Shown piece by piece: positions 10,947-64,000 of a DNA stretch of 64,000 nt; positions within the stretch are counted from its first letter, which is position 1; every line of letters begins with the position of its first letter. The translations under genes and the position numbers were made by a program. The notes beneath the pieces are model-generated. The model did not search any database and was not told where the DNA came from. It worked only from the letters and a program-made list of their open reading frames with translations. Source of the stretch: a virus; the IMG/VR virus record IMGVR_UViG_3300032294_001887, positions 10,768 to 74,767 of that record. One strand, given 5' to 3'.

Positions 10947-10974
10947 CTATTTATATATAAAGTTAAAATTAATT

Positions 10975-17897: not shown

Positions 17898-18220
17898 TGG
17901 CATATCAATATTGGAATCGATATAGTGACTTTTTAATTAACGGTGAACAAACTGTCGTACCTTTTGTACAAATACCTCAAAAGACGACAGATAAAACATT
18001 CATCTACAAAGTTGGTAGAAGTAGATTAGATGTCGTGTCTCAAGAGTTCTACGATTCACCATACTTTGGATGGTTAATTCTCCAAGCAAATCCTGAATTT
18101 GGTGGTTTGGAAAATTACATATATGATGGTGCAGTATTGATTATTCCGTATCCTCTATTACCTTCTTTACAAGACTATAAAACTTCATTAGACAATTATT
18201 TTTATTATTATGGCAGGTAA
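17897..18220 (+). CDS. LysM-like baseplate wedge protein (T4 gp53-like)
   Basis: YKVGRSRLDVVSQEFYDSPYFGWLILQANP..LIIP. Confidence 0.8.
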   Translation: MAYQYWNRYSDFLINGEQTVVPFVQIPQKTTDKTFIYKVGRSRLDVVSQEFYDSPYFGWLILQANPEFGGLENYIYDGAVLIIPYPLLPSLQDYKTSLDNYFYYYGR

Positions 18221-32480: not shown

Positions 32481-33428
32481 ATGGAAAAAATATTAAAAGA
32501 AAATCCCAACCGATTTGTTATCTTCCCAATAGAACATGATGATATTTGGGAGTATTATAAGCAACACCAAGCAGCTTTCTGGACGGCAGAAGAAGTTGAT
32601 TTAACAAATGATATCCGTGATTGGGAAAATTTATCGGATAATGAGAAATACTTCGTTAAGAATGTTTTATCGTTTTTTGCTGCATCAGATGGAATCGTTA
32701 ATGAGAATTTAGCGGAAAACTTTTTGAAGGAAGTTCAATATCCTGAAGCGAAATTCTTTTATGGATTTCAACTTATGATGGAGAATATTCACTCGTTAAT
32801 GTATTCACTTTTGATTGATACATATGTTTCAAATCCTAAAGAAAAAGATGAGTGTTTCCATGCGATTGATAGATTACCGGCGGTTCAGAAGAAAGCATCA
32901 TGGGCTCTCGATTGGATTAAGAATGCATCTTTCCAAGAAAGATTGGTTGCGTTCGCCGCGGTTGAAGGTATCTTCTTCTCAGGTTCATTCTGTTCAATCT
33001 TCTGGTTGAAATCAAGAGGAATCATGCAAGGATTATGTAACGCTAATTCATTAATCTTTAAAGACGAGAACTTACATTGTGATTTTGCAATTCACTTGTT
33101 AAATAATCACATAGAGGATAAACCAAGTGAAAAAAGAATTAAAGAAATCTTATTATCTGCTTTGGAAATTGAAAAAGAATTTATCACAGAATCTTTACCG
33201 GTTTCACTTATTGGTATGAACTCAAACTTGATGAAACAATATCTTGAGTTTGTTGTTGACGGACTTTTGGTTAAACTTGGATGTAAAAAAGAGTTTAATG
33301 TTGAACAACCATTTAAGTTCATGGAACAAATTGCGGTTGAGACCAAAGGTAATTTCTTCGAGTCAAGAACGATGGAATACCAAAAGGCAAAATTGAACGA
33401 AACAATAACATTTACAGAAGATTTCTAA
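32481..33428 (+). CDS. nrdB: class Ia ribonucleotide reductase beta subunit
   Basis: [49 protein letters not shown]. Confidence 0.96.
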
Positions 33429-33440
33429 ACCATATAAATT

Positions 33441-47472: not shown

Positions 47473-48381
47473 ATGGCAATTGGAAGCTACGGCACGATAA
47501 GACCTTCAGACGTAAGTCCTGAAGATGTTCAAATCATAATGAACTATACACCATCAAGGGATGTTACGGATAATTTCATCCTAACAGAACTTGATGCTCA
47601 AACATTACTAAAACCATATTTTAATAATACAGAAACAGGTGGGAATGCGAATGTTGAAATTTTGGGGGGGTTATATAATTTAACATTACCTGCCGAACAA
47701 TTTAACGCTCTTGGAATTTATACTTTATATCTAAGACCTGCTCAAATTAGAACCGTAATAACAGATTGTGGTGTGTTAAGTGCATTACCAAATGTTAAAG
47801 GTATTGTAATTGACATTACAAATGTACCGGTTCAATATCAGAATAAATTTGTTCCACAAGGTTTGGTTGGATTTAGAATTGAATATTTGAATCCAGATGG
47901 CTCAAAAATACCAAATTTCTTTAGAGTTGTGACTTCATCTTTCTTTTGTGAGCCGGTTGTATCTAATGAAGTAAATACAACTCAAAAGTCAATAAGATAT
48001 AGATATGTTGATGGTAGTTCAAATTTAATTTTTTTAACACTATCACCATCATCTTCTCCGACAAATAAACCAAATGCAACACCTTTTATTGGACAACCTG
48101 ACCAAAATATTATAATCACAAATACATTTTTCAATCCGGTTACATTAGAGGTTGAAATGGTTGAATATGACATATCATCTCTTGCAATTGCTCTTTATGG
48201 TAATCAGACTAAATCTATTGATGATGGTATCTACACAATTTACGATTCTGAAAATAATATTTACAGACAATACAATCTATACGAAATTAGAGACCAATTT
48301 AACGCTCTTCTTTATGAGGTTAGACAAAGTAGAGGAAATAATATTGATTTTAGTAAAAACTTCACAACAATAACGAGTTAA
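47473..48381 (+). CDS. putative structural protein
   Basis: 302-aa ORF with TATTTATA at 47451; coupled to downstream wedge gene. Confidence 0.6.
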   Translation: MAIGSYGTIRPSDVSPEDVQIIMNYTPSRDVTDNFILTELDAQTLLKPYFNNTETGGNANVEILGGLYNLTLPAEQFNALGIYTLYLRPAQIRTVITDCGVLSALPNVKGIVIDITNVPVQYQNKFVPQGLVGFRIEYLNPDGSKIPNFFRVVTSSFFCEPVVSNEVNTTQKSIRYRYVDGSSNLIFLTLSPSSSPTNKPNATPFIGQPDQNIIITNTFFNPVTLEVEMVEYDISSLAIALYGNQTKSIDDGIYTIYDSENNIYRQYNLYEIRDQFNALLYEVRQSRGNNIDFSKNFTTITS

Positions 48382-51300
48382 TGGCGGTAGAGATAAAAAA
48401 TACTAAATACTTTTATCCGCCGCGTCCTGGTAATGGCGCGGGGACTTTTTCTGACAACATTGTAGGATTACAAACCGTTGAAGGAGGAGGACTTACGCAA
48501 GGTAATTTTGAGTTTACTACGGGTGTAACGGAAAAGGTGAACAGAACCTTCAATGTCGGAGCTTTCTCCGAACCAATATCGTTAGACATGTTGGGTGTAG
48601 ACAGTTTGGAACAAAGTAGACTAATACTTGCAACACAATTTAGAGTTTATCCTAATTACGATATTTCCCAAGTTCTTAATTTTTCAATGTATGGTTCACT
48701 ATCTAAAAGATTTAGTGTGTCGATAACAAAAATTATTAATTACTTTCCGGCATCATTAGATGTAATGTTCACTAATGATGACTATGTTACAGGTAATACC
48801 GCTTATGATATTGTGTATGATAGGGAAGCTGATGAAACTTATTTTAAAGTAAATGTGGATAGAATTAGTAACCCTTTTGATATTGATTATTCTATAAACG
48901 CTACAACTAATTTAAACATCAGAGAGATTAGTGTATCACCATATAGAAATCTATATAATACTTACTTGGATTATTGTGTTAGTATTAATGATAATATTTT
49001 TAATATATTGGCGTTTGTTCCATCAGAAACATTATCATTAGGATACATTCAACTTTACGCTTCAGGGGCACCATTCGGAACCACCGCAACAACAATTAAT
49101 GATGAGTTCCAAGTTAGACCCAACGACTATATCGTTGATAAAACTTTCCAAGAATCTTTTGACGAAGTTGAAAAATTCTTGGTTAATAGATTAGTAAGAC
49201 CTGAATATACTGCAGTATTCCAAGTCCCACAACAAAATGAATATGGTCAAACATATACTGAATACAAACAAGTTACTTGGCCGAAAAAAGGACCTTGGAA
49301 TTTAGATATTAGTTCATTTCTATTCGACAACTATCTTGAAGAAATTCAGGCAATTGCGATTAATTTAGATTCTTTCAAAACAAACTTAATCTCAAGATTT
49401 TTAGTTACAGATTCTTTAAAAGAATTTGATACTTTAGGTCAAAAAGTTGAAAAAATATTTCAAATCTATGGTAGAAGTTTTGACCAAGTAAAACAATTCA
49501 TTGACGGATTAGCTTATATGAATTCGGTTAACTATAACCCTTCAAATGACATCCCTTCAGAATTGTTGGTGAATTTGTCAAGAACATTAGGGTGGTCATC
49601 AAACTTTTCTCCAATAACAAATGAGGATTTTTTAAGTTCAGTTTTTGGTAATACCTCAACTCCAACATATCCTGGATATGCAAGAGCCCTGACTCCAACA
49701 GAGTTAAATTATGCTTATTATCGTAATTTAATTCTCAATGCTTCCTATCTTTTTAAATCAAAAGGAACAAGAAGGTCAATTGAGTTTTTATTAAGATTAA
49801 TCGGAGCACCTGATTCATTAATCGAATACAATGAGCACATCTATTTGGCTGACCAAAAAATTAATCTTGAACAATTCGATACTCAATGGGCGGCTATATC
49901 AGGTGGAACTTATGTTAATAATGTTCCTAGTTATTTACCAAATGACACATACAAGATTCAAGGAAATTTATATACCGCATTTACATCAAGTGCGATATAC
50001 CAAGATGTTAATGTAAATTTAACTGATTACCCTATTGATACTGAAGGGTATCCAAAAGCACCTCAAAATACGGAAACATTCTTTTTTCAAATTGGTGCAG
50101 GTTGGTATGAAGTAACACCACAACATAGAAGTCCTGATGCTGTCCAAATAACCGGAAATGTATACACAGGGCAAAATTTTAATGTCCAAACTCAACTAAC
50201 ACCGTTCACTTATGGTCAGACTTATCTTAACCGATACCGAAACTTTCCATATATGAGTGAAGGTTTCAAATTACAAAAAGTTGTTGATAATAATAAATCT
50301 TGGTTATCTAGCGACGATAAAATAAGAATATCGACTCAAGGGGATTATAACGCTTATTATTTTGTGGATAATGAAAAATTAGTGTTGAATGTTAAAAATG
50401 TTGATATTTTCTTAAATCCCGCGCAAGGTCTCGTATATGATGTTTGGGACCAATCAAGACAATATGATTATCCAATACCTGAATCGGGATTAACGGTGGG
50501 ATATCCGGTACCTGGAGGAGTCGATTGGACATACATTAATCCTGAACCAAAGAAAAAAACATTCTTTGAATTTTCTCAAACATTTTGGGAGAATATGATT
50601 AACACAAGAAATAGACAATATATTTCAGATGGAAAAACCGGAGGATACCCAACACTCCAATCAATCTTTTGGAAATATATCGAATCGGAACAAACAGTTG
50701 GATTACCAAATAACCAATATACTTATCAAAAGTTAATTGATTATGTAAATGGAATTGGACCATATTGGACAAAGTTGGTGGAACAAATGGTTCCTGCAAC
50801 TACAATATGGAATGGGGGAGTTAGATTGGAAAATTCTATTTTCCACAAACAAAAGTTGGCGTATAGACGACAACGAGGTTGTGAATTTATTTTAGTTCCT
50901 GTCAATCCATGTTATATAAATTCAGGTATTTTTGATTACACTTGTAATTCAGAAGAGGCTACCTTTAACATTTATCCATGGTTTAATCAGGATATAAAAG
51001 TTTCAAACTTCAGTAGTATCTTAGGTTATACACTTAATAATATGTTATCACAACAAGGTTTAACCCTAAATGATTGTAACCAAAATTCAGTATTAACTGA
51101 ATGGTATGTAGATTTAGTTATTGATGGGCAACAAATAATAAAAGAACTTTTTTATACTGGATACGGTATATTAGATGTCCCAACTCCAAATCAATGGAGA
51201 TTTGCATTGCTTAATTATTTACCACAATTAATAAATTATGGATATTCTTATTCGTTTAATAGTGACAATTTAGTAAGTGGTAATATATTAACAATAACGA

Positions 51301-51383
51301 ATTTAAATTGTTTGAATAATACAACAATTAGTTCAGTTTCACTCTATGTAGGAATAAACATTAATATTAATTGTGCTCGATAA
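48381..51383 (+). CDS. baseplate wedge protein (T4 gp7 / P2 gpI-like)
   Basis: IPSELLVNLSRTLGW..LILNASYLFKSKGTRRSIEFLLRLIG. Confidence 0.7.
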   Translation: MAVEIKNTKYFYPPRPGNGAGTFSDNIVGLQTVEGGGLTQGNFEFTTGVTEKVNRTFNVGAFSEPISLDMLGVDSLEQSRLILATQFRVYPNYDISQVLNFSMYGSLSKRFSVSITKIINYFPASLDVMFTNDDYVTGNTAYDIVYDREADETYFKVNVDRISNPFDIDYSINATTNLNIREISVSPYRNLYNTYLDYCVSINDNIFNILAFVPSETLSLGYIQLYASGAPFGTTATTINDEFQVRPNDYIVDKTFQESFDEVEKFLVNRLVRPEYTAVFQVPQQNEYGQTYTEYKQVTWPKKGPWNLDISSFLFDNYLEEIQAIAINLDSFKTNLISRFLVTDSLKEFDTLGQKVEKIFQIYGRSFDQVKQFIDGLAYMNSVNYNPSNDIPSELLVNLSRTLGWSSNFSPITNEDFLSSVFGNTSTPTYPGYARALTPTELNYAYYRNLILNASYLFKSKGTRRSIEFLLRLIGAPDSLIEYNEHIYLADQKINLEQFDTQWAAISGGTYVNNVPSYLPNDTYKIQGNLYTAFTSSAIYQDVNVNLTDYPIDTEGYPKAPQNTETFFFQIGAGWYEVTPQHRSPDAVQITGNVYTGQNFNVQTQLTPFTYGQTYLNRYRNFPYMSEGFKLQKVVDNNKSWLSSDDKIRISTQGDYNAYYFVDNEKLVLNVKNVDIFLNPAQGLVYDVWDQSRQYDYPIPESGLTVGYPVPGGVDWTYINPEPKKKTFFEFSQTFWENMINTRNRQYISDGKTGGYPTLQSIFWKYIESEQTVGLPNNQYTYQKLIDYVNGIGPYWTKLVEQMVPATTIWNGGVRLENSIFHKQKLAYRRQRGCEFILVPVNPCYINSGIFDYTCNSEEATFNIYPWFNQDIKVSNFSSILGYTLNNMLSQQGLTLNDCNQNSVLTEWYVDLVIDGQQIIKELFYTGYGILDVPTPNQWRFALLNYLPQLINYGYSYSFNSDNLVSGNILTITNLNCLNNTTISSVSLYVGINININCAR

Positions 51384-54300
51384 TGAATTATAATCTATTA
51401 ATAACTGGAGATTGTCAAAGTAACGGTTCAGGCGCAATATCTCTTTCAATTAATGGTGGTAATGAACCATATATTGTCCAATGGACATTACTTACTACTC
51501 CTCCAACAAGTTTGGGGACAGATACAATAACATCTCTGTATCCATCAATAAGAACTTCATTAAGTTCCGGTAATTACCTAGCCACCGTTAGTGATAGTAC
51601 TGCACCTGTTCAACAAACTTTAAATATTAGTATACCTGTATCATCAGGAGTATGTGCTAGTATTCTTGGAGTCCAAGGGACAACCTGTTCTTTAGATAAT
51701 GGTTCGGTTACAGGAACCTCATCCTCAAATTTTTCAACTACACAATTTTATTTATATGATTCTAATGATAACGAAATCACGAATCAAAGTACTAATATAA
51801 ATGTCAATGATGTTATTTTTGGTACTTTAAGCGCCGGAACGTATTATATGAAAGTGGTTGATATTGGAGGTTGTACAGGATATAGTCAAAATTTCATTAT
51901 TGAAGACTCAACTCCTTTAGATTTTGGAATATATAATGTGCCAAATTCTTCTTGTGGAGGAACACCTATAGGTAAACTTTTTGTTACAGGAGTCACTGGG
52001 TCTCCCCCGTATAGTTATATTTGGTCTAATGGAGCGACAGGGTCTACGATAACTGGTCTAACTTCGGGAGCCTATTCGGTAACTGTTACGGATTCTTTAG
52101 GGTGTTCACAAACTAAAGGGGTAAATGTGGTTAATGTACCTCAAGTGGGTTTAGGTGCATTTACTGCAGTACCGCCAAGTTGTTTTGCCGCGGATGGGTC
52201 ATTGACCATTCAAATTACAGGAGGTACTGCACCATTCTACTATTCTGCGTCCACAGGAGAAGTATCAATTCAATATGGGACATCTTGGACTTTAAATGGA
52301 TTATCACCCGGGTTTTATTCTATCCAAGTTACAGATGCGGCACTGTGTTCATTTGTAGCAGGTACCACATTAATATCTCCTCAAGGAATGGTCTCCGTCA
52401 CTATTGATACGAGTGGGTCAACTTGTTCAAGTTCTGACGGGTCAATAAAAGTATCTGTGGTTGGAGGTGTTACACCATACACATATACTTTAATTTATCC
52501 TAATGGTAATACAAAAAACATTGGCGGAAATAATACGGTTCAAATATTCCCAAATTTAACGTCAGGGACTTATTCAGTCGCGGTTCAAGATTCTTCGTCT
52601 TGTTATTACATGGAAGAGGTTACTTTATTTGCAACAGATACTTACACAATCTCAACAAATACGACTGGAACAACTTGTAATTTAAACAATGGAATTGTCT
52701 CGGTAACAAGAACTAATGGTGGAGTATCACCATATAATTACTCTTTGGATGGAATTCAGAATGTTCCAAATACCGCGTTATCTGCGGTTACATTTTCAAA
52801 TGTTAGTTCAGGACAACATACCGTAACCGTTACGGATGCCGCGGGTTGTGTTCAAACCACTCAAGTTTATGTTAATCCAAGTAGTTCTTTAGATTTTAGT
52901 TTGTATAGTACATCTTGCGGAAATGGTTCTAATGGGATGATTAATGCTTTAATATCTTCAGGAACACCACCATTTACGTTTTATTGGTCAAATAATGTTA
53001 TTGGCAATCCTCAAGAAATTCAAGTTGAAGGATTAAGTGCCGGTACATATACTCTAAGAATAGTTGATGATATAGGATGTTCTTTAGAAAGGTCAACAAC
53101 TATAAATTGTGATAAACTCTATGTTTCCTACCAGAGATATCTTATGGGTGGGGAAAACTTTACAATAAATAGTCAAACCAAGTTTGGGTTAGTTCAAATG
53201 TTAAATGAAGGGTTTAAAGATTTGACAGTAGGACAAACCGGTTGCAATTTATTACAAAGTGTTTTTGATATAAAAATTTCAGTTAATCCATCAGGTTATA
53301 GTGTAAATGAAAGTTTCTTTACCGGTTATACATTAAACTCTGTACCTAGTGATAATTTATATATTAATACTCTTAGAGAAATGTTGTTAAATATTCCTGG
53401 AGTTGGAGGGGTAATTGTTAATGGAGATACTAACCAATTAACAATTAATACCATACCCGGAGATAATACATTAGTTGGTCAACAAATAATAGTTGAATTG
53501 GTTATAAATTATGATATTTTATGTAATTGTTCGCCACCTATTAATTTTGATATTACCGCTAATTGGAGTTTAGTTGGTGTGACAAATCAAGCAACATTCG
53601 TTGCATGGTTAACCTCCTTGGGGGCTACTTCTGTTAACGTTACCGCATTTGATTTAAATGGAGGTAAATTACAGGCAACTATTTCAGTTAATGGGATTAC
53701 AACATTAAATTTAAATAATTTAGGCGTAACTTTGGTTAACAAAGTAGGGGGATTAACAGGTTTAAATACTTTGGATTTATCAGACAATAATATCGTAACA
53801 TTTAATCCATCAATTGCGTTACCAACGACTTTACAAACTTTAGGTTTAAATGGTAATCAAATTGTAACATTTAATCCATCAATTGCGTTACCAACGACTT
53901 TACAAACTTTAGGTTTAAATGGTAATCAAATTGTAACATTTAATCCATCAATTGCGTTACCAACGACTTTACAAATTTTAGGTTTAAATGGTAATCAAAT
54001 TGTAACATTTAATCCATCAATTGCGTTACCAACGACTTTACAAATTTTAGGTTTAAATAGTAATCAAATTGTAACATTTAATCCATCAATTGCGTTACCA
54101 ACGAGCTTAGAGACATTAGATTTAGGGACCAACCAAATTGTGACATTTAATCCATCAATTGCATTACCAACGAGCTTACTACAATTATATTTAAATGATA
54201 ATCAAATTGTAACATTTAATCCATCAATTACGTTACCAACGAGCTTGCAACAATTATATTTAAATGGTAATCAAATTGTAACATTTAATCCATCAATTGC

Positions 54301-54778
54301 GTTACCAACGAACCTGCTAGAATTATTATTGTATAATAACCAAATTGTAACATTTAATCCATCAATTGCATTACCAACGAGCTTGCTAGCATTATATTTA
54401 AGTAATAACCAAATTGTAACATTTAATCCATCAATTGCATTACCAACGAACTTACTAGCATTATATATAGATAATAATCAAATTGTAACATTTAATCCAT
54501 CAATTGCATTACCAATAACCTTCAACTTATTAAGTTTACGAGGCAATCAAATTGTGGCATTTAATCCAACAATTCCGTTACCCAATAGTTTAGAGATTTT
54601 GGACTTAACAGGTAATCTCATGACAACCGCTGGTTATACTATTAGTGAAACATGGGCAAATGCTCAAACACCATTTACATCCGTTTGTGCTATTAGTTTT
54701 ACGGGGAATGTTAACTCTATAACCGGTACTAATTTAGAGTCTATTTTGATATCTAAAAATTGTTCAATTATCCCATAG
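51383..54778 (+). CDS. SprB-repeat fibre/adhesin with C-terminal leucine-rich-repeat domain
   Basis: about 7 units of C..GSI.V..GG..PY.Y.W..L.AG.Y.V.V.D..GC; then 12 full 23-aa LRRs LxxLxLxxNQIVTFNPSIALPTx; probable start ATG 51383. Confidence 0.82.
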   Translation: MNYNLLITGDCQSNGSGAISLSINGGNEPYIVQWTLLTTPPTSLGTDTITSLYPSIRTSLSSGNYLATVSDSTAPVQQTLNISIPVSSGVCASILGVQGTTCSLDNGSVTGTSSSNFSTTQFYLYDSNDNEITNQSTNINVNDVIFGTLSAGTYYMKVVDIGGCTGYSQNFIIEDSTPLDFGIYNVPNSSCGGTPIGKLFVTGVTGSPPYSYIWSNGATGSTITGLTSGAYSVTVTDSLGCSQTKGVNVVNVPQVGLGAFTAVPPSCFAADGSLTIQITGGTAPFYYSASTGEVSIQYGTSWTLNGLSPGFYSIQVTDAALCSFVAGTTLISPQGMVSVTIDTSGSTCSSSDGSIKVSVVGGVTPYTYTLIYPNGNTKNIGGNNTVQIFPNLTSGTYSVAVQDSSSCYYMEEVTLFATDTYTISTNTTGTTCNLNNGIVSVTRTNGGVSPYNYSLDGIQNVPNTALSAVTFSNVSSGQHTVTVTDAAGCVQTTQVYVNPSSSLDFSLYSTSCGNGSNGMINALISSGTPPFTFYWSNNVIGNPQEIQVEGLSAGTYTLRIVDDIGCSLERSTTINCDKLYVSYQRYLMGGENFTINSQTKFGLVQMLNEGFKDLTVGQTGCNLLQSVFDIKISVNPSGYSVNESFFTGYTLNSVPSDNLYINTLREMLLNIPGVGGVIVNGDTNQLTINTIPGDNTLVGQQIIVELVINYDILCNCSPPINFDITANWSLVGVTNQATFVAWLTSLGATSVNVTAFDLNGGKLQATISVNGITTLNLNNLGVTLVNKVGGLTGLNTLDLSDNNIVTFNPSIALPTTLQTLGLNGNQIVTFNPSIALPTTLQTLGLNGNQIVTFNPSIALPTTLQILGLNGNQIVTFNPSIALPTTLQILGLNSNQIVTFNPSIALPTSLETLDLGTNQIVTFNPSIALPTSLLQLYLNDNQIVTFNPSITLPTSLQQLYLNGNQIVTFNPSIALPTNLLELLLYNNQIVTFNPSIALPTSLLALYLSNNQIVTFNPSIALPTNLLALYIDNNQIVTFNPSIALPITFNLLSLRGNQIVAFNPTIPLPNSLEILDLTGNLMTTAGYTISETWANAQTPFTSVCAISFTGNVNSITGTNLESILISKNCSIIP
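53762..54589 (+). repeat. 69-bp tandem repeat x12 encoding LRRs
   Basis: constant core AATCAAATTGTAACATTTAATCCATCAATTGCRTTACCAACGA recurring every 69 nt with a 26-nt variable part. Confidence 0.95.
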
Positions 54779-54953
54779 GTTGTCAAATTACTAAAAGTTA
54801 GTTAACCTTTTTCAGTTGAGTAACATGAAATGTCAATAGGAATTTAAACAACGGACGAACGAGTTGATGTGATTAAGAGGTTCAAAATTATTAATGATGA
54901 TATTTATAATTTAAATACTCAGGAATCTTTAGTTCTTGGGCGAGTTATAGACA

Positions 54954-56048
54954 ATGGTACAAATACGAATAACAAATATTTCGGGCGGAACTTATCCAAT
55001 TGATGTTTTTATCTCAGATGTTTATGGGAATAATAAAAGTCATTTAACAACAATAACATCTGGTCCTGTACCGCCTGCGTTATTTTATACTACAACTATT
55101 CCTCAAATATTTGAGACGGCACCTGAAATATTGTTAACTTTAGTTGATGCTAACGGATGTGAATTATTTGAACTTATCCCATGTAGTAGCCCAACACCAA
55201 CTCCAACACCAACTGTTACACCAACTCCGGGACCAACTAGTACTCAAACTCCAACGCCAACTACAACACCAACTGCTACGCCTACTCCAACTCCGGGACC
55301 AACTAGTACTCAAACTCCAACACCAACTACAACACCAACTGCTACGCCTACTCCAACTCCGGGGCCAACTAGTACTCAAACTCCGACACCAACTACTACT
55401 CCAACCTCAACGCCTACACCAACTCCAACACAACCACTTTATTATGCTTATTTATTTGCGGAACCTCAAAACTTTAATGATGGATTGGTGATAGATGATT
55501 ATATGACCATTCAAAACTCGGCAACATGGGGAGGATATCAATTCTATGGTATACCAAGTAGTACAAATTACTCATCAAATCTTGATTTATATGCTCATTT
55601 CTCAGGATGGACTAGTGGTCTTGGTAATTACATAACGGCACCTCAATCGTTTGCTGGTTTAATTAGACAATCGTCTGGTTCAGGTACCGACACTTACGGA
55701 TGTTCTCAAAATCAATATACTTTTGGAACAATTCCGGTTTCAACGTCTCAAGTTAATACTAATATACAATATTACTATTCTATTTGGGTACCATTGGCAG
55801 GGGTTGGTGGTAGCATGACTAACATGACTGTGGATATTGGTTCGGGAGGACCATGTACCTTTAATATAATAAATGATGGTATTCCTGATAGTATTGCGGG
55901 AACTAATGTAAATGTAACTTCAGGTGGAGCAATACCTGCAGGTAATTATAGAGTACTTTGGTTAGGTTCTTTCGCGGTACAACCATCGGCAGTTCCTCCA
56001 CCACCATTATCTGTTACATTATACTTTAAAGGAGACACTAAAACTTAA
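54954..56048 (+). CDS. virion protein with Pro/Thr mucin-like stalk between two globular domains
   Basis: N-domain ending [15 protein letters not shown], about 80-aa PT tract, beta-rich C-domain. Confidence 0.78.
55221..55418 (+). repeat. 66-bp tandem repeat x3 ([22 protein letters not shown])
   Basis: units begin at 55221, 55287, 55353. Confidence 0.9.
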
Positions 56049-56068
56049 AAATAAACAAAATATAGAAT

Positions 56069-59000
56069 ATGTCATTTCCATATAAAAATCCGATATCCGC
56101 AAGCCAAATTTCTGGAACGGAAAGTGCTTCAAGAACATCAACATTTGGTACTAACTTCTCAGTTCTCCAAACAGGGGGGTATATGGAAGTTTATGGTTTA
56201 TCTGATTTGAATTGGTCAACTTATGGGGCAACAGGTTCAATCCAAAATTCTGGTAATACAATACCAATTCAATTTACAGTTGCAGGTTCTTTTAGTGCGT
56301 TAACCCTTAACTCAGACAACATATCTTCAGGTAGACGAAGATTAGGTATGCAGGTTCATGTACAAGAAACTGATACGGTATACCAATATACTATACCAAA
56401 CTACAATACGTTATTTGCTGCACTAACAGGTTTAACTGGGTTATCCGCAATATCAGTTAGTGATTATTCAACAATCGTAAATACTCGTTCACAGGCTGGT
56501 AGAAATTTCATCAACGCTTGGACAGGTTCAACAATTGAAGGTGTTGGTGGTGTTAGTCGTAATGATGCAAGATGGAGAATAGTTTATGGAAGCGATGTTC
56601 AAATAACAGGAGGAACTTATTTTTCCGCAATTACAACTTTAGATTTATATAATAGTACGGGAGGGACAATCTCAATATCAGGATTTAATGGAACAGTTAC
56701 TGGTGGGACATATAATAGCGGGACATCAACAATAACTTTAAATAATAGTGATGGTAGTTTTGTTAATATAACAGGTATCACATCAAACGCCGGTACTCTT
56801 ACTGTTTATGATGCAACCTCAGGGGTGACGGTAACAAATGTCACAGGTATGACATTTTCAGGGGCTTCTGTAATTAATAACGGAGGTGGGAATGTCTTAA
56901 TTAATATTACCGGTGGAACAAGTGGTAGTTCGGGTTCTTCAGGAACAAGTGGTAGTAGTGGAACCTCAGGTATAAATGGTTCAAGTGGAACTTCAGGAAC
57001 AAGTGGTAGTAGTGGGACATCGGGTTCAAGTGGAACTAGTGGTTCTTCAGGAACTAGTGGTAGTAGTGGGACTTCGGGTTTAAGCGGAGCTTCAGGCACA
57101 AGTGGAACTTCAGGTAGTAGCGGTACGGGAGGTAGTTCAGGTTCAAGTGGTTCGTCAGGAACATCAGGCTCAAGTGGAACTAGTGGTAGTTCAGGAACAT
57201 CAGGTTCGTCAGGGACATCAGGAAGTTCAGGGAGTAGTGGAACCTCAGGTTCAAGCGGAACTAGTGGTTCTTCAGGGACTTCGGGTTCAAGTGGGACTAG
57301 CGGAACAGATGGTAGTTCAGGTACAAGCGGTAGTAGTGGTACATCAGGTTCTTCAGGAACATCGGGTAGTAGTGGTACCTCAGGTTCTTCAGGGACTAGT
57401 GGATTAACAGGAGCGTCAGGTACTAGCGGAACTTCAGGTTCTTCAGGAACTAGTGGTAGTAGTGGAATAAGTGGTTCTTCAGGAACTTCAGGTTCAAGTG
57501 GAACGAGCGGTTCAAGCGGAACAAGTGGTAGTAGTGGAACAGATGGTTCTTCAGGAACATCGGGTAGTAGTGGGACAAGTGGTTCTTCAGGTTCAAGTGG
57601 AACTAGCGGAACATCGGGTAGTAGTGGAACAAGTGGAACAGATGGTAGTAGTGGTACGAGTGGTAGTTCAGGCTCAAGTGGTACAAGTGGCTCGTCAGGG
57701 TCTTCAGGAACATCCGGCTCATCAGGAACTTCAGGTTCTAGCGGTAGTTCAGGTTCATCAGGGACTAGCGGTTCAAGCGGTTCATCAGGAAGTTCAGGAA
57801 CATCCGGTTCAAGTGGGTCTTCAGGGACAAGTGGATTAACAGGAGCGTCAGGTACTAGCGGAACATCAGGTTCAAGTGGAACAAGTGGTTCTTCAGGGAC
57901 TGGTGGAAGTAGTGGAACAAGTGGTTCATCGGGAACAAGCGGTAGTAGTGGTACATCAGGTTCTTCAGGAAGTAGTGGAACCTCAGGTTCGAGCGGTACG
58001 AGTGGCTCTTCAGGTAGTTCAGGTTCGAGCGGTACGAGTGGCTCTTCAGGTAGTTCAGGGACAAGCGGTAGTAGTGGTACATCAGGTTCAAGTGGAACAA
58101 GTGGTTCGTCAGGAACTAGCGGAACAGATGGTAGTTCAGGAACTAGTGGTAGTAGCGGAACTTCAGGTTCTTCAGGGACTAGTGGTAGTTCAGGTTCAAG
58201 TGGTACTAGCGGTTCATCAGGAACTTCAGGTTCAAGTGGGTCTTCAGGGTCTTCAGGAACCTCCGGCTCATCAGGAACTTCAGGGTCTTCGGGTACATCA
58301 GGAAGTAGTGGAAGTTCAGGAACATCCGGTTCTTCAGGTTCATCAGGAAGTTCGGGAACCAGTGGTAGTTCAGGTTCGTCAGGAACATCAGGTTCAAGCG
58401 GGTCTTCAGGAACTAGTGGATTAACAGGAGCGTCAGGAACTAGCGGAACTTCAGGTTCTTCAGGAACCAGTGGTAGTAGTGGTATAAGTGGTTCGTCAGG
58501 AACATCGGGCTCAAGTGGGACTAGCGGTTCATCAGGGAGTAGCGGTACGAGCGGTTCATCAGGAAGTAGTGGAAGTTCAGGAACAAGTGGAACTAGTGGT
58601 TCATCGGGAACAAGCGGTAGTTCAGGCTCAAGTGGTACTAGTGGTTCATCAGGTTCAAGTGGTTCGTCAGGAACTAGTGGTAGTTCAGGCTCAAGTGGAA
58701 CAAGTGGCAGTTCAGGTTCAAGTGGTTCGTCAGGAAGTTCAGGAACAAGCGGAAGTAGTGGAACTTCAGGAACCTCAGGTTCAAGCGGAACATCAGGTTC
58801 ATCAGGAAGTAGTGGGACATCAGGCTCAAGTGGAAGTAGTGGTTCAAGTGGAACTAGCGGTTCATCAGGAAGTAGTGGGACATCAGGCTCAAGTGGTTCA
58901 TCCGGGACATCAGGAACTAGTGGAAGTAGTGGTTCATCCGGAACATCAGGGACAAGTGGGTCGTCGGGAACATCAGGTTCTTCAGGAACTAGCGGTTCAT

Positions 59001-62000
59001 CAGGAAGTAGTGGGACAAGCGGTAGTTCAGGTTCATCAGGAACAAGTGGGTCGTCAGGAACATCAGGCTCTTCAGGTAGTTCAGGGTCTTCAGGGACTAG
59101 TGGTAGTTCAGGTTCGTCAGGAACATCAGGTAGTTCAGGTTCGTCAGGAACATCAGGTTCTTCAGGAAGTTCGGGAACTAGTGGTAGTTCAGGTTCTTCA
59201 GGAACATCAGGAACAAGTGGGTCGTCAGGAACCAGTGGATTAACAGGAGCGTCAGGCACTAGCGGAACTTCAGGTTCTTCAGGAACCAGTGGTAGTAGTG
59301 GTATAAGTGGTTCGTCAGGAACATCGGGCTCAAGTGGAACTAGCGGAACAGGATTTTCTGCGGTAACAAATCCTGCACTAACTAGAGTATTAACATCAGA
59401 CGGAACACCTAATGGTGCAATTGCCCAATCAGGATTAACTTACAATGGAACACAATTAACTGTTAGTGGTATAACATATACTAAAGGAATTACATCAGTT
59501 AGTGGAATAATATTTCCTCAACTTACAATCAATAGTACCTATGTTGTAACGGACGATGACTACATGGTTGATGTTACAGGTGGCACTTTCAATGTTCAAC
59601 TTCAAACTGCTGTTGGTAGAAAAGGTAGATTGATTGTAATTAAAAATAATGGTGGTGGTGCGGTAACCGTATTACCGTATTCAGGTGAAAATATTGACGA
59701 TAAAGCATTTGTTATATTAGGTGAAACGAATTCAATTCAATTAGCGAGTAATGGTTCAAACTGGGTTGCAATTTCTTATAATATTTCAACGGTTAACTCA
59801 TCAACAGGGGTGTTTGAGTTTTCGGGATTAAGTATCGCTTCTCCCACATCGTTCACTGTTGCACCGGTTAAAGGTTGGATTGTTGATGATAACACAAATC
59901 CTTTATCTCCGCAACTTTATTATCTTTCATATACAGGTGGGACATATAGTGCGACTTATGTTACGGCTACTACTGAAACTTGGATTTATATAACGAGTGG
60001 TGGAACAATTACACAATTGAACATTCCTCCAACGGAAACACAAAGAAGACAAAACATCTTCTTGGGTAAGTTGGGACATGCGAATAAAACAAGTATTATT
60101 AATGCGTTCAGTCAACCCGATTTTGTTCAATCACCATTGGCACAACTTCGTGATATGTTCACTCCAATTAACTTAATAAACGGAGGTATAAGTGCTTCAC
60201 CAAATGGTGCTAATTTAAGTTTCAATACAAGTGCAGAATATTTGTATGGATTAGGTATTAATTTTGCCGTTAACCCATTACAACCAGATGCATTATATGT
60301 TTCAGGTACCGCTCCGTGTACTTTCCAATATAGAACACAAACAGGTGGAACCGCAACAAACACAACAACAATTAACCCAACGGTTTATGATGTTAACGGT
60401 GTCGTTACGCCACTTTCAGGTACCAAAGCAACTAACCAAAGAATTTATTTGGTTCAAAATGGTGTGTTTAGAGTTCAATACGGACAAACCGAATATTCAA
60501 CATTGGCTCAAGCGGTTGCGGGTATTGCGACGGAACCATTTGTCGAATTTTCCAATTTCTCAACCAATGGTATTTTAATTGGTATTTTATCCGTAACAAG
60601 TAATGCTACTAATTTATCGGATACATCAAGAGCGTTATTTTTCAATGTGTCAAAATTTGGTGAAGGTGCAGGTGCTGCGGGTGGTACACCAACAACAAAT
60701 TTACAACAAGCATATAATAACTCCGTTCAACCTGAAATTATAACAAATTCAACATTAGGTCCATTATCACTTCAAGATGGTACAAATAATCTAAATAGTG
60801 GTGTTATTGAAGGTAGGAATTTTACTGGTGGTACTACTTTTAGTGTAAATGCTTCAGGTAGAACAACAACAACCTCATTATCAATAACAGGTATTACAAG
60901 TGGAACTAGCTTAACACGATTTGTTGTTGTTGATAATAGTGGAAATACTTTTTATCAAACAGCTGGTGCTAGTGGTTCGTCAGGTACTAGTGGAACTTCA
61001 GGTTCTTCAGGAACATCCGGCTCATCAGGAAGTAGTGGGACATCAGGCTCAAGTGGTTCGTCAGGAACTTCAGGTTCAAGTGGAACTAGCGGTTCATCAG
61101 GAAGTAGTGGAAGTAGCGGTTCATCAGGAAGTAGTGGAAGTTCAGGAACAAGTGGAACTAGTGGTTCATCGGGAACAAGCGGTAGTTCAGGAACTAGTGG
61201 TTCATCGGGTTCATCCGGAACTAGTGGCAGTTCAGGCTCAAGTGGAACAAGTGGTAGTTCAGGTTCAAGTGGTTCGTCAGGAAGTAGTGGGACATCAGGC
61301 TCAAGTGGTTCTTCAGGTTCATCAGGAACTAGTGGAAGTAGTGGTTCATCCGGAACATCAGGTTCATCCGGAACATCAGGTTCTTCGGGTACATCAGGAA
61401 GTAGTGGAAGTTCAGGAACATCAGGTTCAAGCGGAACAAGTGGTTCTTCAGGAAGTTCGGGGACTAGTGGTAGTTCAGGCTCTTCAGGAACAAGTGGCTC
61501 ATCGGGAACTAGTGGTAGTTCAGGTTCATCAGGAACAGCAGGAACAAGTGGTTCATCAGGAACATCGGGAACAAACGGAAGTAGTGGTTCATCAGGAACA
61601 TCAGGTTCTTCGGGCTCATCCGGAACAAGCGGAAGTAGTGGAAGTTCAGGTTCTTCGGGCTCATCCGGAACAAGCGGAAGTAGTGGAACTTCAGGAACAT
61701 CAGGTTCAAGTGGGACAAGCGGTTCATCAGGAACATCAGGTTCTTCAGGTTCTTCAGGTTCAAGTGGGACAAGCGGAACATCTCCTACAGGTTTAGTTGC
61801 GTCTAACTATGTTGCAAAAGGAGTCAAAGGAGGTTCTTCTCAAACTATAACAAATGGGTCTGACCAAGTCGTAACATTTGTTGATGAGTTTGACCCAAAT
61901 AATTGGATAACTTCAAATAAATTTCAACCAACAATAGCAGGTTATTATGACATTCAAGTCGCGGTATGGTGGGATGCTGGCTCAGTCACTAATAATCAAT

Positions 62001-64000
62001 GTAACATTCAGATTAGGAAAAATGGTACTACGCAAGTTGCCATTCAGCAAACTCAAATTTTAACAGGTTCTGGATATGGTATGGAAATTGATATTATTGT
62101 GTATTTTAATGGTACAACAGATTATATTGAAGTAACCGCATTTACTGGTAATCCAACATCTCAAAATATAAATGGGTCGAGTTCGGGTACTTGGATTACC
62201 GCAGCATTAATTGTTGGAGGAGGAACCTCAGGAACGAGTGGTTCTTCAGGAACAAGCGGTAGTTCAGGTTCATCAGGAACCTCCGGCTCTTCAGGTTCAA
62301 GTGGAACTAGTGGTTCTTCAGGTTCATCAGGAACCTCCGGTTCTTCGGGAAGTTCAGGAACTAGTGGTTCATCAGGAAGTTCAGGAACAAGTGGTTCATC
62401 AGGTAGTTCAGGGACATCAGGTTCATCTGGAACCTCAGGTTCTTCGGGAACTAGTGGGATAAATGGTTCTTCGGGAACTAGTGGTTCTTCAGGTTCATCA
62501 GGAAGTTCAGGAACAAGTGGTTCTTCGGGTTCAAGTGGAACAAGTGGTAGTTCAGGTTCTTCGGGTTCTTCAGGAACATCAGGAACAAGCGGTAGTAGTG
62601 GGACATCAGGAAGTTCAGGAACAAGTGGTTCTTCGGGTTCATCCGGGACTAGCGGAAGTAGTGGGTCATCAGGAACATCAGGTTCTTCGGGAACTAGTGG
62701 CACTTCAGGAAGTTCAGGTTCAAGTGGAACGAGTGGAAGTAGTGGCTCATCAGGAACATCAGGGTCTTCGGGCACTTCAGGTTCAAGCGGAACAAGTGGC
62801 TCATCGGGTACTAGCGGTTCTTCAGGTTCAAGTGGTAGTAGTGGGACTTCAGGTTCTTCGGGAAGTTCAGGAACTAGTGGTTCATCAGGTTCTTCAGGAA
62901 CATCCGGTTCTTCGGGTTCAAGTGGAACGAGCGGTAGTTCGGGTTCTTCAGGAACTAGTGGAAGTAGTGGTTCATCTGGGACATCAGGAACTAGTGGAAG
63001 TAGCGGTTCATCAGGAACTAGCGGCTCTTCAGGAAGTTCAGGAACATCTGGTTCAAGTGGCTCATCTGGAACAAGTGGTAGTTCAGGTTCATCAGGAAGT
63101 TCAGGAACATCAGGTTCAAGTGGTAGTAGTGGAACAAGCGGTAGTTCAGGCTCTTCGGGAACATCAGGTTCTTCAGGTACTAGCGGAACAAGCGGTTCAT
63201 CCGGAACATCGGGTTCTTCGGGTTCAAGTGGAACGAGCGGTAGTTCGGGTTCTTCAGGAACTTCAGGTTCGAGCGGAACAAGTGGTAGTAGTGGAACATC
63301 AGGTTCAAGTGGTTCTTCGGGAACTTCAGGTTCAAGTGGTACGAGCGGTTCATCAGGAAGTTCGGGAACTAGTGGAAGTAGCGGCTCATCAGGAACATCA
63401 GGTTCAAGTGGAAGTAGTGGTTCATCAGGTAGTTCAGGGACAAGTGGTTCTTCGGGTTCAAGCGGAAGTAGCGGAACATCAGGAAGTTCGGGTACAAGTG
63501 GAATAAGTGGTTCATCAGGAACAAGCGGAAGTAGTGGTAGTAGTGGAACTAGTGGCTCTTCAGGAAGTAGTGGGACATCAGGTTCTTCGGGTTCATCCGG
63601 GACTAGCGGAAGTAGTGGAACAAGTGGTTCTTCAGGTTCATCAGGAAGTTCAGGAACTAGTGGTAGTTCAGGTTCTTCAGGAACAAGCGGGTCATCAGGA
63701 ACATCAGGCTCTTCAGGTTCATCCGGTTCTTCGGGTTCAAGTGGTAGTAGCGGAATATCCGGTTCTTCAGGAACTTCAGGTTCAAGTGGGACCAGCGGTT
63801 CTTCAGGAACTAGTGGATTAACAGGAGCGTCAGGTACTAGCGGAACATCAGGAAGTTCGGGTACAAGTGGAATAAGTGGCTCATCGGGAACTAGTGGTAG
63901 TTCAGGTTCATCAGGAACATCAGGTTCAAGTGGTTCGTCAGGAAGTTCAGGGACAAGCGGTTCATCGGGAACTAGTGGAAGTAGTGGTTCATCAGGAACA
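56069..64000 (+). CDS. giant Gly-X-Ser collagen-like fibre protein (>2640 aa, runs off window end)
   Basis: Not in ORF track; ATG 56069 MSFPYKNPISASQ..; frame read through without a stop in the globular parts and held in 9-nt register across the repeats; three G-(S/T)-S tracts separated by globular domains. Confidence 0.9.
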   Translation, partial: MSFPYKNPISASQISGTESASRTSTFGTNFSVLQTGGYMEVYGLSDLNWSTYGATGSIQNSGNTIPIQFTVAGSFSALTLNSDNISSGRRRLGMQVHVQETDTVYQYTIPNYNTLFAALTGLTGLSAISVSDYSTIVNTRSQAGRNFINAWTGSTIEGVGGVSRNDARWRIVYGSDVQITGGTYFSAITTLDLYNSTGGTISISGFNGTVTGGTYNSGTSTITLNNSDGSFVNITGITSNAGTLTVYDATSGVTVTNVTGMTFSGASVINNGGGNVLINITGGTSGSSGSSGTSGSSGTSGINGSSGTSGTSGSSGTSGSSGTSGSSGTSGSSGTSGLSGASGTSGTSGSSGTGGSSGSSGSSGTSGSSGTSGSSGTSGSSGTSGSSGSSGTSGSSGTSGSSGTSGSSGTSGTDGSSGTSGSSGTSGSSGTSGSSGTSGSSGTSGLTGASGTSGTSGSSGTSGSSGISGSSGTSGSSGTSGSSGTSGSSGTDGSSGTSGSSGTSGSSGSSGTSGTSGSSGTSGTDGSSGTSGSSGSSGTSGSSGSSGTSGSSGTSGSSGSSGSSGTSGSSGSSGSSGTSGSSGSSGTSGLTGASGTSGTSGSSGTSGSSGTGGSSGTSGSSGTSGSSGTSGSSGSSGTSGSSGTSGSSGSSGSSGTSGSSGSSGTSGSSGTSGSSGTSGSSGTSGTDGSSGTSGSSGTSGSSGTSGSSGSSGTSGSSGTSGSSGSSGSSGTSGSSGTSGSSGTSGSSGSSGTSGSSGSSGSSGTSGSSGSSGTSGSSGSSGTSGLTGASGTSGTSGSSGTSGSSGISGSSGTSGSSGTSGSSGSSGTSGSSGSSGSSGTSGTSGSSGTSGSSGSSGTSGSSGSSGSSGTSGSSGSSGTSGSSGSSGSSGSSGTSGSSGTSGTSGSSGTSGSSGSSGTSGSSGSSGSSGTSGSSGSSGTSGSSGSSGTSGTSGSSGSSGTSGTSGSSGTSGSSGTSGSSGSSGTSGSSGSSGTSGSSGTSGSSGSSGSSGTSGSSGSSGTSGSSGSSGTSGSSGSSGTSGSSGSSGTSGTSGSSGTSGLTGASGTSGTSGSSGTSGSSGISGSSGTSGSSGTSGTGFSAVTNPALTRVLTSDGTPNGAIAQSGLTYNGTQLTVSGITYTKGITSVSGIIFPQLTINSTYVVTDDDYMVDVTGGTFNVQLQTAVGRKGRLIVIKNNGGGAVTVLPYSGENIDDKAFVILGETNSIQLASNGSNWVAISYNISTVNSSTGVFEFSGLSIASPTSFTVAPVKGWIVDDNTNPLSPQLYYLSYTGGTYSATYVTATTETWIYITSGGTITQLNIPPTETQRRQNIFLGKLGHANKTSIINAFSQPDFVQSPLAQLRDMFTPINLINGGISASPNGANLSFNTSAEYLYGLGINFAVNPLQPDALYVSGTAPCTFQYRTQTGGTATNTTTINPTVYDVNGVVTPLSGTKATNQRIYLVQNGVFRVQYGQTEYSTLAQAVAGIATEPFVEFSNFSTNGILIGILSVTSNATNLSDTSRALFFNVSKFGEGAGAAGGTPTTNLQQAYNNSVQPEIITNSTLGPLSLQDGTNNLNSGVIEGRNFTGGTTFSVNASGRTTTTSLSITGITSGTSLTRFVVVDNSGNTFYQTAGASGSSGTSGTSGSSGTSGSSGSSGTSGSSGSSGTSGSSGTSGSSGSSGSSGSSGSSGSSGTSGTSGSSGTSGSSGTSGSSGSSGTSGSSGSSGTSGSSGSSGSSGSSGTSGSSGSSGSSGTSGSSGSSGTSGSSGTSGSSGTSGSSGSSGTSGSSGTSGSSGSSGTSGSSGSSGTSGSSGTSGSSGSSGTAGTSGSSGTSGTNGSSGSSGTSGSSGSSGTSGSSGSSGSSGSSGTSGSSGTSGTSGSSGTSGSSGTSGSSGSSGSSGTSGTSPTGLVASNYVAKGVKGGSSQTITNGSDQVVTFVDEFDPNNWITSNKFQPTIAGYYDIQVAVWWDAGSVTNNQCNIQIRKNGTTQVAIQQTQILTGSGYGMEIDIIVYFNGTTDYIEVTAFTGNPTSQNINGSSSGTWITAALIVGGGTSGTSGSSGTSGSSGSSGTSGSSGSSGTSGSSGSSGTSGSSGSSGTSGSSGSSGTSGSSGSSGTSGSSGTSGSSGTSGINGSSGTSGSSGSSGSSGTSGSSGSSGTSGSSGSSGSSGTSGTSGSSGTSGSSGTSGSSGSSGTSGSSGSSGTSGSSGTSGTSGSSGSSGTSGSSGSSGTSGSSGTSGSSGTSGSSGTSGSSGSSGSSGTSGSSGSSGTSGSSGSSGTSGSSGSSGTSGSSGSSGTSGSSGSSGTSGTSGSSGSSGTSGSSGSSGTSGSSGSSGTSGSSGSSGSSGTSGSSGSSGTSGSSGSSGTSGSSGTSGTSGSSGTSGSSGSSGTSGSSGSSGTSGSSGTSGSSGTSGSSGSSGTSGSSGTSGSSGSSGTSGSSGSSGTSGSSGSSGSSGSSGTSGSSGSSGSSGTSGSSGTSGISGSSGTSGSSGSSGTSGSSGSSGTSGSSGSSGTSGSSGTSGSSGSSGSSGTSGSSGSSGTSGSSGTSGSSGSSGSSGSSGSSGISGSSGTSGSSGTSGSSGTSGLTGASGTSGTSGSSGTSGISGSSGTSGSSGSSGTSGSSGSSGSSGTSGSSGTSGSSGSSGT
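56915..59344 (+). repeat. Gly-X-Y tract 1 (270 triplets, mostly GSS/GTS)
   Basis: Gly codon every 9 nt; 2430 nt = 270 x 9. Confidence 0.93.
60965..61783 (+). repeat. Gly-X-Y tract 2 (91 triplets)
   Basis: 819 nt = 91 x 9, GSS/GTS. Confidence 0.93.
61784..62221 (+). other. C1q/TNF-like globular domain within giant fibre
   Basis: SQTITNGSDQVVTF..FQPTIAGYYDIQVAV..IQIRKNG..IVYFNGTTDYIEV..TWITAALI. Confidence 0.72.
62222..64000 (+). repeat. Gly-X-Y tract 3 (at least 197 triplets, truncated by window)
   Basis: Gly codon every 9 nt from 62222 to 63995. Confidence 0.93.

Follow-up and report, generated by a model that had tools for sequence, protein, structure and literature searches.

Three putative modular fibre genes, one with a giant collagen-like stalk, in a probable jumbo myovirus contig

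The 64,000-bp window analysed here comprises bases 10768-74767 of a linear, 74,767-bp IMG/VR viral contig (IMGVR_UViG_3300032294_001887), and the end of the window is the end of the contig. Its final part (51383-64000) is occupied by three consecutive genes, here called A, B and C, all in the same orientation on the + strand at the end of a baseplate gene block (Table 1). Each encodes an extended stalk joined to a head, as a first-pass annotation of the sequence had proposed. The ATG of gene A (51383) overlaps the stop codon of an upstream gene of 1000 aa (48381-51383) and gene C begins 20 nt after gene B, so that the three genes look like one transcription unit. The first-pass annotation had also placed them right after the last wedge gene, which is not borne out, as the 1000-aa gene has no detectable wedge homology in Pfam, PHROG and PDB sequence searches and the gp6-like gene is the only recognisable wedge gene. 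Because CheckV rates the contig 25% complete, the genome is expected to be approximately 300 kb. Tail sheath, gp6-like baseplate wedge, ribonucleotide reductase, DnaB, UvsX-like and SSB proteins are encoded in the window. The nearest matches of the gp6-like protein (26-28% identity) are in an uncultured 484-kb phage, Flavobacterium phages 'immuto' and a Microcystis phage; together with a G+C content of 32% and the SprB repeats of gene A, these matches suggest that the source is probably a jumbo myovirus of ~300 kb with a Bacteroidota host. The order of a gp6-like gene, large unknown genes and fibre genes is the same in Flavobacterium phage immuto. The 1000-aa gene was used to pick relatives: it is present in at least 219 viral contigs, of which 80 (75-100% identical in this gene) were examined and are referred to below as the related loci.

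Table 1. Positions of the genes, domains and repeats discussed in the text, in window coordinates (LRR, leucine-rich repeat; ORF, open reading frame; TRF, Tandem Repeats Finder; RBP, receptor-binding protein).
Feature	Position	Strand	Length or copies	Description
gp6-like wedge gene	36416-38254			Sole recognisable wedge gene
Gene A (P0001)	51371/51383-54778	+	1131-1135 aa	ORF call; seven SprB/Ig-like repeats (residues ~10-575), conserved middle domain (~575-720), LRR array and Cys-containing C-terminal cap
LRR DNA repeat	53795-54582	+	69-bp (23-aa) unit, 11.4 DNA copies	88% matches (TRF); ~13 protein units
TATTTATA octamer	54901-54908	+		46 nt upstream of gene B start; candidate promoter element shared by structural genes
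Gene B (P0002)	54954-56048	+	364 aa	72-aa N-domain, 86-aa Pro/Thr linker, 205-aa beta-rich C-terminal head
Pro/Thr DNA repeat	55191-55426	+	66-bp (22-aa) unit, 3.7 copies	89% matches (TRF)
Gene C (P0003)	56069-64000	+	>2643 aa	Open at contig end
Gene C N-domain	56069-56914	+	282 aa	Residues 1-282, conserved; presumed virion anchor
Collagen-like tract 1	56915-59353	+	271 triplets	Uninterrupted Gly-(Ser/Thr)-Ser
Module G1	59354-60964	+	537 aa	Core resembles RBP shoulder
Collagen-like tract 2	60965-61783	+	91 triplets	
Module G2	61784-62221	+	146 aa	C1q/TNF-fold knob between collagen tracts
Collagen-like tract 3	62222-64000	+	At least 197 triplets	Reaches contig end

Behind its N-domain, gene C alternates three collagen-like tracts with two globular modules, G1 and G2. 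The Pfam family Collagen (PF01391) matches nine stretches of the protein (1.4e-217). The 559 triplets of the tracts, 317 of them GSS and 212 GTS, run without a break, contain no proline and almost no charged residues, and offer 1086 Ser/Thr residues per chain. Their codons are scrambled (four Gly, six Ser and four Thr codons, with 85 distinct 9-mers) while the register remains unbroken. The DNA repeats of the tracts are degenerate (60-90% matches, longest exact repeat 80 bp), which qualifies the earlier claim of internal DNA repeats in all three genes: those of gene C are codon-scrambled and not clean arrays. Long ORFs on the reverse strand of the tracts (e.g. 56806-59259) were dismissed as by-products of low-complexity sequence. 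Complete collagen genes in the related loci encode 1524, 1543, 1706 and 2030 aa; they differ in how many tracts and beads they have, and their favoured triplets vary among GTS, GTD, GID and GSD. Exact triplet periodicity under synonymous scrambling, and its persistence in diverged relatives, therefore points to a constraint on structure, for which a triple helix kept in register by the C1q-fold knob would be the simplest explanation. A collagen triple helix rises 0.286 nm per residue, at which rate the three tracts would measure ~233, ~78 and at least ~169 nm and the visible part of the chain at least ~480 nm. The collagen genes of 48 related loci open with this same N-domain (46-84% identity); it has no Pfam match (E ≤ 5) and no PDB sequence match, and its ESM Atlas matches are unnamed viral clusters only.

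Module G2 has 117 homologues, most of which lie inside collagen-repeat proteins. Its AlphaFold2 (AF2) model, from an alignment with 25 homologues, has ten strands and a predicted local distance difference test score (pLDDT) of 91.9. Foldseek matched this model to the central spike knob of phage phi812, cyanophage fibre domains, C1QL1-3, TNF ligands and BclA, with a probability of 1.00 for C1QL, TNF and BclA. The template-modelling (TM) score to C1QL1-3 as target is 0.79-0.83 (root-mean-square deviation 2.4-3.0), and the C1q-like domain that the first-pass annotation had read from the sequence is confirmed at this level. The C1q profile PF00386 does not match G2 at E ≤ 5, and a PDB sequence search with G2 gave no useful match. 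A precomputed PF00386 match exists for two distant homologues (P0082 and P0110), so that the predicted link between G2 and C1q is one of fold and of transitive sequence similarity only. By tblastn, G2 resembles proteins of Pelagibacter phages HTVC019P and HTVC203P. Neither G1 nor G2 is present in the orthologous collagen genes of the 80 related loci; G2 is found in other giant collagen-like genes (2673, 2845 and 3160 aa) with unrelated N-termini, on contigs of up to 430 kb. These genes (L191:659-8680, L190:788-9325 and L195:6317-15799, respectively) are complete and have a beads-on-a-string layout, with C1q-fold knobs 74-85% identical to G2 and C-terminal globular parts of 195-689 aa.

Module G1 belongs to a far larger family, with homologues in 4294 representative clusters at E ≤ 1e-3 and in 1031 at E ≤ 1e-30; its members form a fibre module of ~380-520 aa and sit in tailed-phage proteins whose lengths range from 330 to 2800 aa. 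G1 has no Pfam family (E ≤ 5), the PDB sequence search with it gave no useful match, and Foldseek gave no clear match in the PDB. The AF2 model of G1 is confident at residues 150-440, and residues ~141-268 were aligned by VIA-align with the shoulder domain of phage RBPs and TssK, the Z scores being 8.5 for the tail fibre of cyanophage A-1(L), 7.9 for Mtd, 7.6 for the phage 1358 RBP, 7.3 for the HFTV1 fibre, 7.1 for the p2 RBP and 7.1 for TssK. This list of matches is coherent and agrees with tblastn, whose matches in phages of Stenotrophomonas, Streptomyces and Flavobacterium are genes annotated as tail fiber, tailspike or minor tail protein, and with BFVD, where all matches are tailed-phage proteins. 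HylP structures are among the weak matches of the C-terminal part of G1. With more than 4000 clusters and no Pfam entry, G1 represents a large group of fibre modules that lacks annotation and merits a name.

The stalk of gene A comprises seven repeats of the C-x3-(N/D)G type, counted by eye, and Pfam assigns SprB (4.7e-20, three stretches passing), LRR_8 (1.1e-16) and LRR_4 (1.1e-14) to the protein; Pfam also finds the SprB family in gene A of five relatives. The LRR consensus LxxLxLxxN is matched by 12 motifs at 23-residue spacing, and the longest exact repeat within the array is 112 bp. Residues 1 to ~720 are kept in 78 related loci with 53-99% identity. None of the 80 loci has a match to the LRR tip; their gene A either ends at ~711 aa or goes on with a Pro/Thr linker and other unannotated domains. 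The combination of SprB and LRR recurs in at least 12 other metagenomic proteins, 64-81% identical to gene A, in which the number of LRR units ranges from 11 to 16; the LRR variation seen is a germ-line difference in copy number between phage lineages.

The linker of gene B (residues ~77-162) is composed of 40 T, 28 P and 6 S among its 86 residues, giving 46 Ser/Thr per chain. More than a thousand Ser/Thr hydroxyls had been attributed to two of the stalks in the first-pass annotation, a figure that the collagen-like stalk reaches and the Pro/Thr stalk does not. The N-domain of gene B corresponds to a separate ORF of ~105-120 aa in 65 related loci, and in 41 the counterpart of its head is the C-terminal end of a separate gene rich in Pro/Thr. 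The window and L017 share a fused form, in which the N-domain of the small ORF runs straight into the linker and head and the usual N-domain of gene B itself is absent. Across relatives the length of gene B varies from 160 to 855 aa. Gene B has no Pfam match (N-domain and head searched to E ≤ 5) and no PHROG match, the ESM Atlas matches of its head are unnamed viral clusters only, and the alternative tips of genes A and B in relatives belong to no Pfam family.

The order shared by the related loci is 1000-aa gene, gene A, small ORF, Pro/Thr-rich gene B, collagen gene. The N-terminal parts of the proteins are kept, and the distal parts (tips, linker lengths and repeat numbers) are exchanged. 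Changes of repeat number and of heads had been foreseen, and are seen in the LRR units, in gene B and in gene C (1524-2030 aa). Such a combination of a conserved anchor and shuffled distal modules is typical of phage fibres. On contig L068 (L068:12988-17565), gene A is followed directly by ORFs of 138, 218 and 306 aa, with neither gene B nor the collagen gene in between, and the 218-aa ORF is 28% identical to the Anp1-like transferase described below; L068 may be a natural deletion variant.

Gene C runs off the contig, and what lies downstream of it can be read only in relatives, which are 76-87% identical in the 1000-aa gene or 85-88% identical in G2. Glycosylation genes lie directly downstream of the collagen gene in every relative where that gene is complete, and a cluster with a GT60 gene lies on the window's own contig, in keeping with the prediction that genes for glycosyltransferases and sugar nucleotides would be found nearby. 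In G001 (326 kb, rated 100% complete) and G002, the collagen gene is followed by a pair of small ORFs, an Anp1-like enzyme of the GT-A type, a methyltransferase, an NAD-dependent sugar epimerase/dehydratase, a GT2_4-like protein, two GT7 enzymes fused to LamG, and radical-SAM proteins. The GT7 genes of G001 (L097:12562-15428) are tandem paralogues of unusual architecture, each joining a beta-4-galactosyltransferase-like domain to a LamG/concanavalin-like domain; this fusion could couple substrate binding to sugar transfer. In G004, which is 87% identical to the window in the 1000-aa gene, a convergently transcribed gene for a 774-aa enzyme abuts the collagen gene. This enzyme consists of a GT4 domain fused to a C-terminal half that matches nearly the whole chain of the protein O-heptosyltransferase TibC (PDB 4rap, 8e-32), and the next genes encode a methyltransferase, a hexapeptide acyltransferase and an FkbM methyltransferase. 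L189, whose G2 is 88% identical to that of the window, has a 1027-aa TibC-like enzyme (5e-52) and a methyltransferase-GT34 fusion. There is no lipopolysaccharide heptosyltransferase among the PDB matches of the TibC-like enzymes of G004 and L189. L190/L191 and L201 have GT25 enzymes, GT9-like enzymes and sulfotransferases near the collagen gene; the GT9-like protein of L201 has no PDB sequence match. The sulfotransferase genes (L190:13971-14792 and L201:5635-6456; PF13469, 2e-21 and 4e-16) stand a few genes from giant collagen-like genes, which hints at sulfated glycans or sulfated Ser/Thr/Tyr on the fibres.

A collagen tract ends no more than 3 kb upstream of the gene for the Anp1-like glycosyltransferase (GT) in 21 of 23 distinct loci with a GT at least 55% identical, in 6 of 18 loci at 45-55% identity, and in 0 of 8 below 45%. 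At the start of the window's contig (L002:2-4573), a protein cut by the contig start ends in (PVTPTAT)13 and is followed by GT60, DUF3431, two unannotated ORFs and an HtrL-like gene. The GT60 protein is a homologue of polypeptide N-acetylglucosamine (GlcNAc) transferases (PF11397, 6e-67); four of the five related records have GT60, and 14 control bacterial genomes lack it. A second fibre locus of G001 (L211:5892-9929) encodes a protein of 794 aa, matched by the PHROGs 'collagen like minor tail' and tail fibre, then a 187-aa ORF and a 334-aa Pro/Thr-rich protein, and after these a GT60 gene. The linkage of fibre genes to transferases of protein-modifying type, recurring with different enzymes in different contexts, is good evidence of a circumstantial kind, and no more, that the transferases may act on the fibres.

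On balance, and with rather more confidence than doubt, we read genes A-C as encoding the peripheral host-recognition fibres of a jumbo myovirus, modular and probably O-glycosylated. By analogy with other phage fibres, the conserved N-terminal parts would anchor the chains on the virion, at or near the baseplate, and the spacers (the SprB/Ig-like string of gene A, the Pro/Thr linker of gene B and the Gly-Ser/Thr-Ser tracts of gene C) would hold exchangeable binding modules off the particle. The gene C product would most likely trimerise through its C1q/TNF-fold knob and RBP-like module, after which the periodic G-X-Y tracts could wind into a triple helix of the collagen type without proline. 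In the infected cell, soluble phage-encoded transferases would probably O-glycosylate the tracts rich in Ser/Thr and the Pro/Thr linkers, and the sugars would stabilise and protect the fibre; because the tracts lack proline and charge, dense O-glycosylation would be the likeliest stabiliser. The low-complexity spacers and tandem DNA repeats may act as recombination joints, which would explain why lineages differ in tip, anchor and length. A more specific proposal, which we regard as possible and advance tentatively, is that a widespread group of aquatic jumbo phages builds proteoglycan-like, proline-free collagen fibres several hundred nm long, which would owe their stability to dense phage-encoded O-glycosylation, with the sugars methylated or sulfated in some lineages, and would carry exchangeable receptor-binding knobs beaded along the rod. 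The sugars would then take the role that hydroxyproline has in animal collagen.

Several points weigh against the reading of genes A-C as glycosylated recognition fibres. We infer the virion location of their products from synteny and homology, and the trimer, the triple helix, the glycosylation and the role in adsorption are likewise inferred. Since neither gene B nor the collagen gene follows gene A on L068, genes B and C may be dispensable. The VIA-align scores of G1 (Z 7-8.5) are in the range that the tool calls middling. GSS and GTS triplets offer neither proline nor charged pairs, so that without modification a triple helix may lack stability, and the tracts may be flexible tethers. The adjacency of glycosylation genes to the collagen gene is seen only in relatives, and neither PF00535 and PF00534 (GT2 and GT1) nor a TibC-like enzyme was found in the window's 74.8-kb contig. 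G001 and G002 carry their TibC-like gene in another part of the genome, far from the collagen gene. The transferases could also have DNA or the host envelope as their target, and roles of phage transferases in modifying both are discussed in a study of moraphages (PMC12619734).

This last point leads to the foremost alternative, unlikely in our judgement and still to be taken seriously, in which the virion fibres are real but unglycosylated, the transferases modify phage DNA or a host surface polysaccharide, and the adjacency arises from a shared flexible host-interaction region. Phage glycosyltransferases are indeed best known for modification of DNA and O-antigen (discussed in PMC12619734), the enzyme sets near the fibre genes differ between lineages, and the TibC-like gene is not beside the collagen gene in G001 and G002. 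Against this, the TibC-type heptosyltransferases that are adjacent to collagen genes (8e-32 and 5e-52) come from a family with characterised members that act on proteins, a GT60 polypeptide GlcNAc-transferase absent from the 14 control bacterial genomes is nearby, and the adjacency occurs in at least five gene contexts with different enzymes as well as in a second fibre locus beside GT60.

It is improbable, to our mind, that the tracts are disordered, highly hydrated tethers or bristles which hold the knobs far from the particle and form no triple helix. Gly/Ser sequences are classic flexible linkers, and the absence of proline and near absence of charged residues fit such a role, but a disordered linker would not need the perfect three-residue period that extends over 271, 91 and at least 197 triplets with scrambled codons, and that is retained in diverged relatives with other residues at X and Y (GTD, GID and GSD). 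The tracts are also flanked by a C1q/TNF-fold domain, and this fold trimerises and registers collagen in C1q and BclA. Equally doubtful is the proposal that gene C, and perhaps gene B, encodes 'hairs' of the head, neck or sheath that serve in particle adhesion or virion protection and not in host recognition. Hairy jumbo phages are known, among them PTm1 and PTm5, whose host Tenacibaculum belongs to the Bacteroidota (PMC13282480), and the gene C anchor has no homology to a known baseplate socket in Pfam, ESM Atlas and PDB sequence searches; on the other side stand the location of the genes at the end of the baseplate block and the homology of the internal modules to tail fibre and RBP modules. 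Finally, it is very improbable that the giant ORF is an assembly artefact of repeats, or that the proteins are non-virion (e.g. host-surface effectors): although the contig ends in a repeat at which many related contigs also break, independent samples yielded identical complete collagen genes (2030 aa in L006/L007 and 1706 aa in L055/L056), which makes an artefact unlikely, the DNA repeats are degenerate enough to assemble, and none of the three N-termini resembles a secretion signal by eye.

Some of the closest parallels to the proposed glycosylated fibres come from bacterial surface proteins. BclA and BclA3 are 'hair' glycoproteins of the exosporium of Bacillus and Clostridioides difficile, and the triplets of BclA are GPT. 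The gene of the transferase that modifies such a stalk neighbours that of its substrate. They resemble gene C in having a Thr/Ser-rich, collagen-like stalk with a C1q/TNF-fold head, and BclA is among the Foldseek matches of G2. Unlike BclA, gene C is viral and 10-fold longer, has GSS and GTS triplets without proline, carries its knob internally between tracts together with an additional RBP-like module, and has glycosylation that is predicted only. In C. difficile, the soluble transferase SgtA O-glycosylates the stalk of BclA3 (PMC7157674). A second parallel is provided by the autotransporter heptosyltransferases TibC and Aah, which act on TibA and AIDA-I, since the G004 and L189 enzymes match TibC along almost its entire chain. 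TibC works in the cytoplasm, where it modifies Ser residues in an adhesin built of repeats. The phage enzymes differ in being fused to a GT4 domain, and their presumed substrate would be a collagen-like repeat, in contrast to the beta-helix passenger of TibA. Mimivirus, also a very large virus, encodes proteins of the collagen type and glycosylates its surface fibres with machinery of its own, but it is a eukaryotic virus with hydroxylysine-linked sugars, whereas neither a lysyl hydroxylase nor Lys-rich triplets are present here.

Among phages, G-X-Y repeats are trimeric spacers of fibres, and to our knowledge the known collagen-like phage fibres carry short tracts only. Gene C shares this spacer with the PHROG 'collagen like minor tail' proteins, the prophage collagens of E. 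coli O157 (PMC3368898) and streptococcal HylP, and differs from them in its 559 or more triplets, its lack of proline and the set of glycosylation genes in its relatives. C1q-domain genes beside tail fibres have been proposed to encode hypervariable RBPs in marine phages (pelagiphages) and cryoconite phages (PMC3909814, PMC7468147); those proteins are of ordinary size (one gene is 1.7 kb; PMC7468147), whereas G2 is a single bead, flanked on either side by collagen tracts, of a chain exceeding 2643 aa. Transferases of mycobacteriophages have been shown experimentally to modify Ser/Thr-rich extensions of virion proteins, according to the account of Freeman et al. 2023 given in PMC12619734. The targets in that account are short C-terminal tails of capsid and tail-tube subunits, whereas here they would be fibres, as suggested by the gene content. 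The moraphages, jumbo phages from aquatic habitats with genomes of up to 307 kb, are predicted to infect Flavobacteriia and have four core groups of glycosyltransferases (PMC12619734); they resemble the source phage as large aquatic phages with predicted Bacteroidota hosts. Collagen is not mentioned in the moraphage paper, which raises virion glycosylation as one possible role of the glycosyltransferases (PMC12619734), and a 2026 review of jumbo phages mentions neither collagen nor glycosylation. No description of collagen-like fibres paired with protein glycosyltransferases in phages was found in the literature.

Given that every part belongs to a type of module known from phage fibres, and that G1 and G2 homologues are annotated as tail fibre or putative RBP in cultured phages, the label 'undescribed system' in the first-pass annotation is not justified. 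Its branched network and its convergence on variable lymphocyte receptors would be analogies only; the enlarged capture radius and the shielding of the virion are reasonable ideas, likewise drawn by analogy. The unusual features of the locus are the size of gene C, its proline-free Gly-Ser/Thr-Ser chemistry, its internal C1q-fold knob in a beads-on-a-string layout, the LRR tip on a SprB stalk, and the recurrent pairing with glycosylation genes. If the proposed fibres are real and glycosylated, glycosylation of phage virions, so far shown experimentally only in mycobacteriophages, would be common in environmental jumbo phages. They would also be a natural case of collagen folding without proline, a test case for sugar-stabilised triple helices and a possible source of designable fibres, and would help to explain how very large phages find rare hosts.

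Other features of the window concern the setting of the locus. PHROG matches are absent for the five genes that separate gene A from the gp6-like gene, and PDB sequence searches with the 1000-aa protein and a 1827-aa upstream protein gave no useful match. The octamer TATTTATA ahead of gene B also occurs on the + strand at 10948, 12848, 17869, 35929, 38323 and 47451, 11-37 nt ahead of starts at 10975, 12873, 17897, 35940, 38343 and 47473, so that it lies about 11-53 nt upstream of seven structural-gene starts. Its total count (18, with 12 expected) is not enriched and it was therefore taken as weak evidence, a positional hint that it may be a late promoter element. Both ends of the window's contig fall within low-complexity, fibre-type repeats. 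The genes for the small and large subunits of ribonucleotide reductase (32481-35861) sit between the replication genes and the baseplate block, just before the gp6-like wedge region. Downstream of the sheath and tube region, two very large ORFs (1674 and 2530 aa) occupy 12873-25802; the 1674-aa ORF has no PHROG match, and one of the two may encode a very long tape measure protein, which would imply a long tail.

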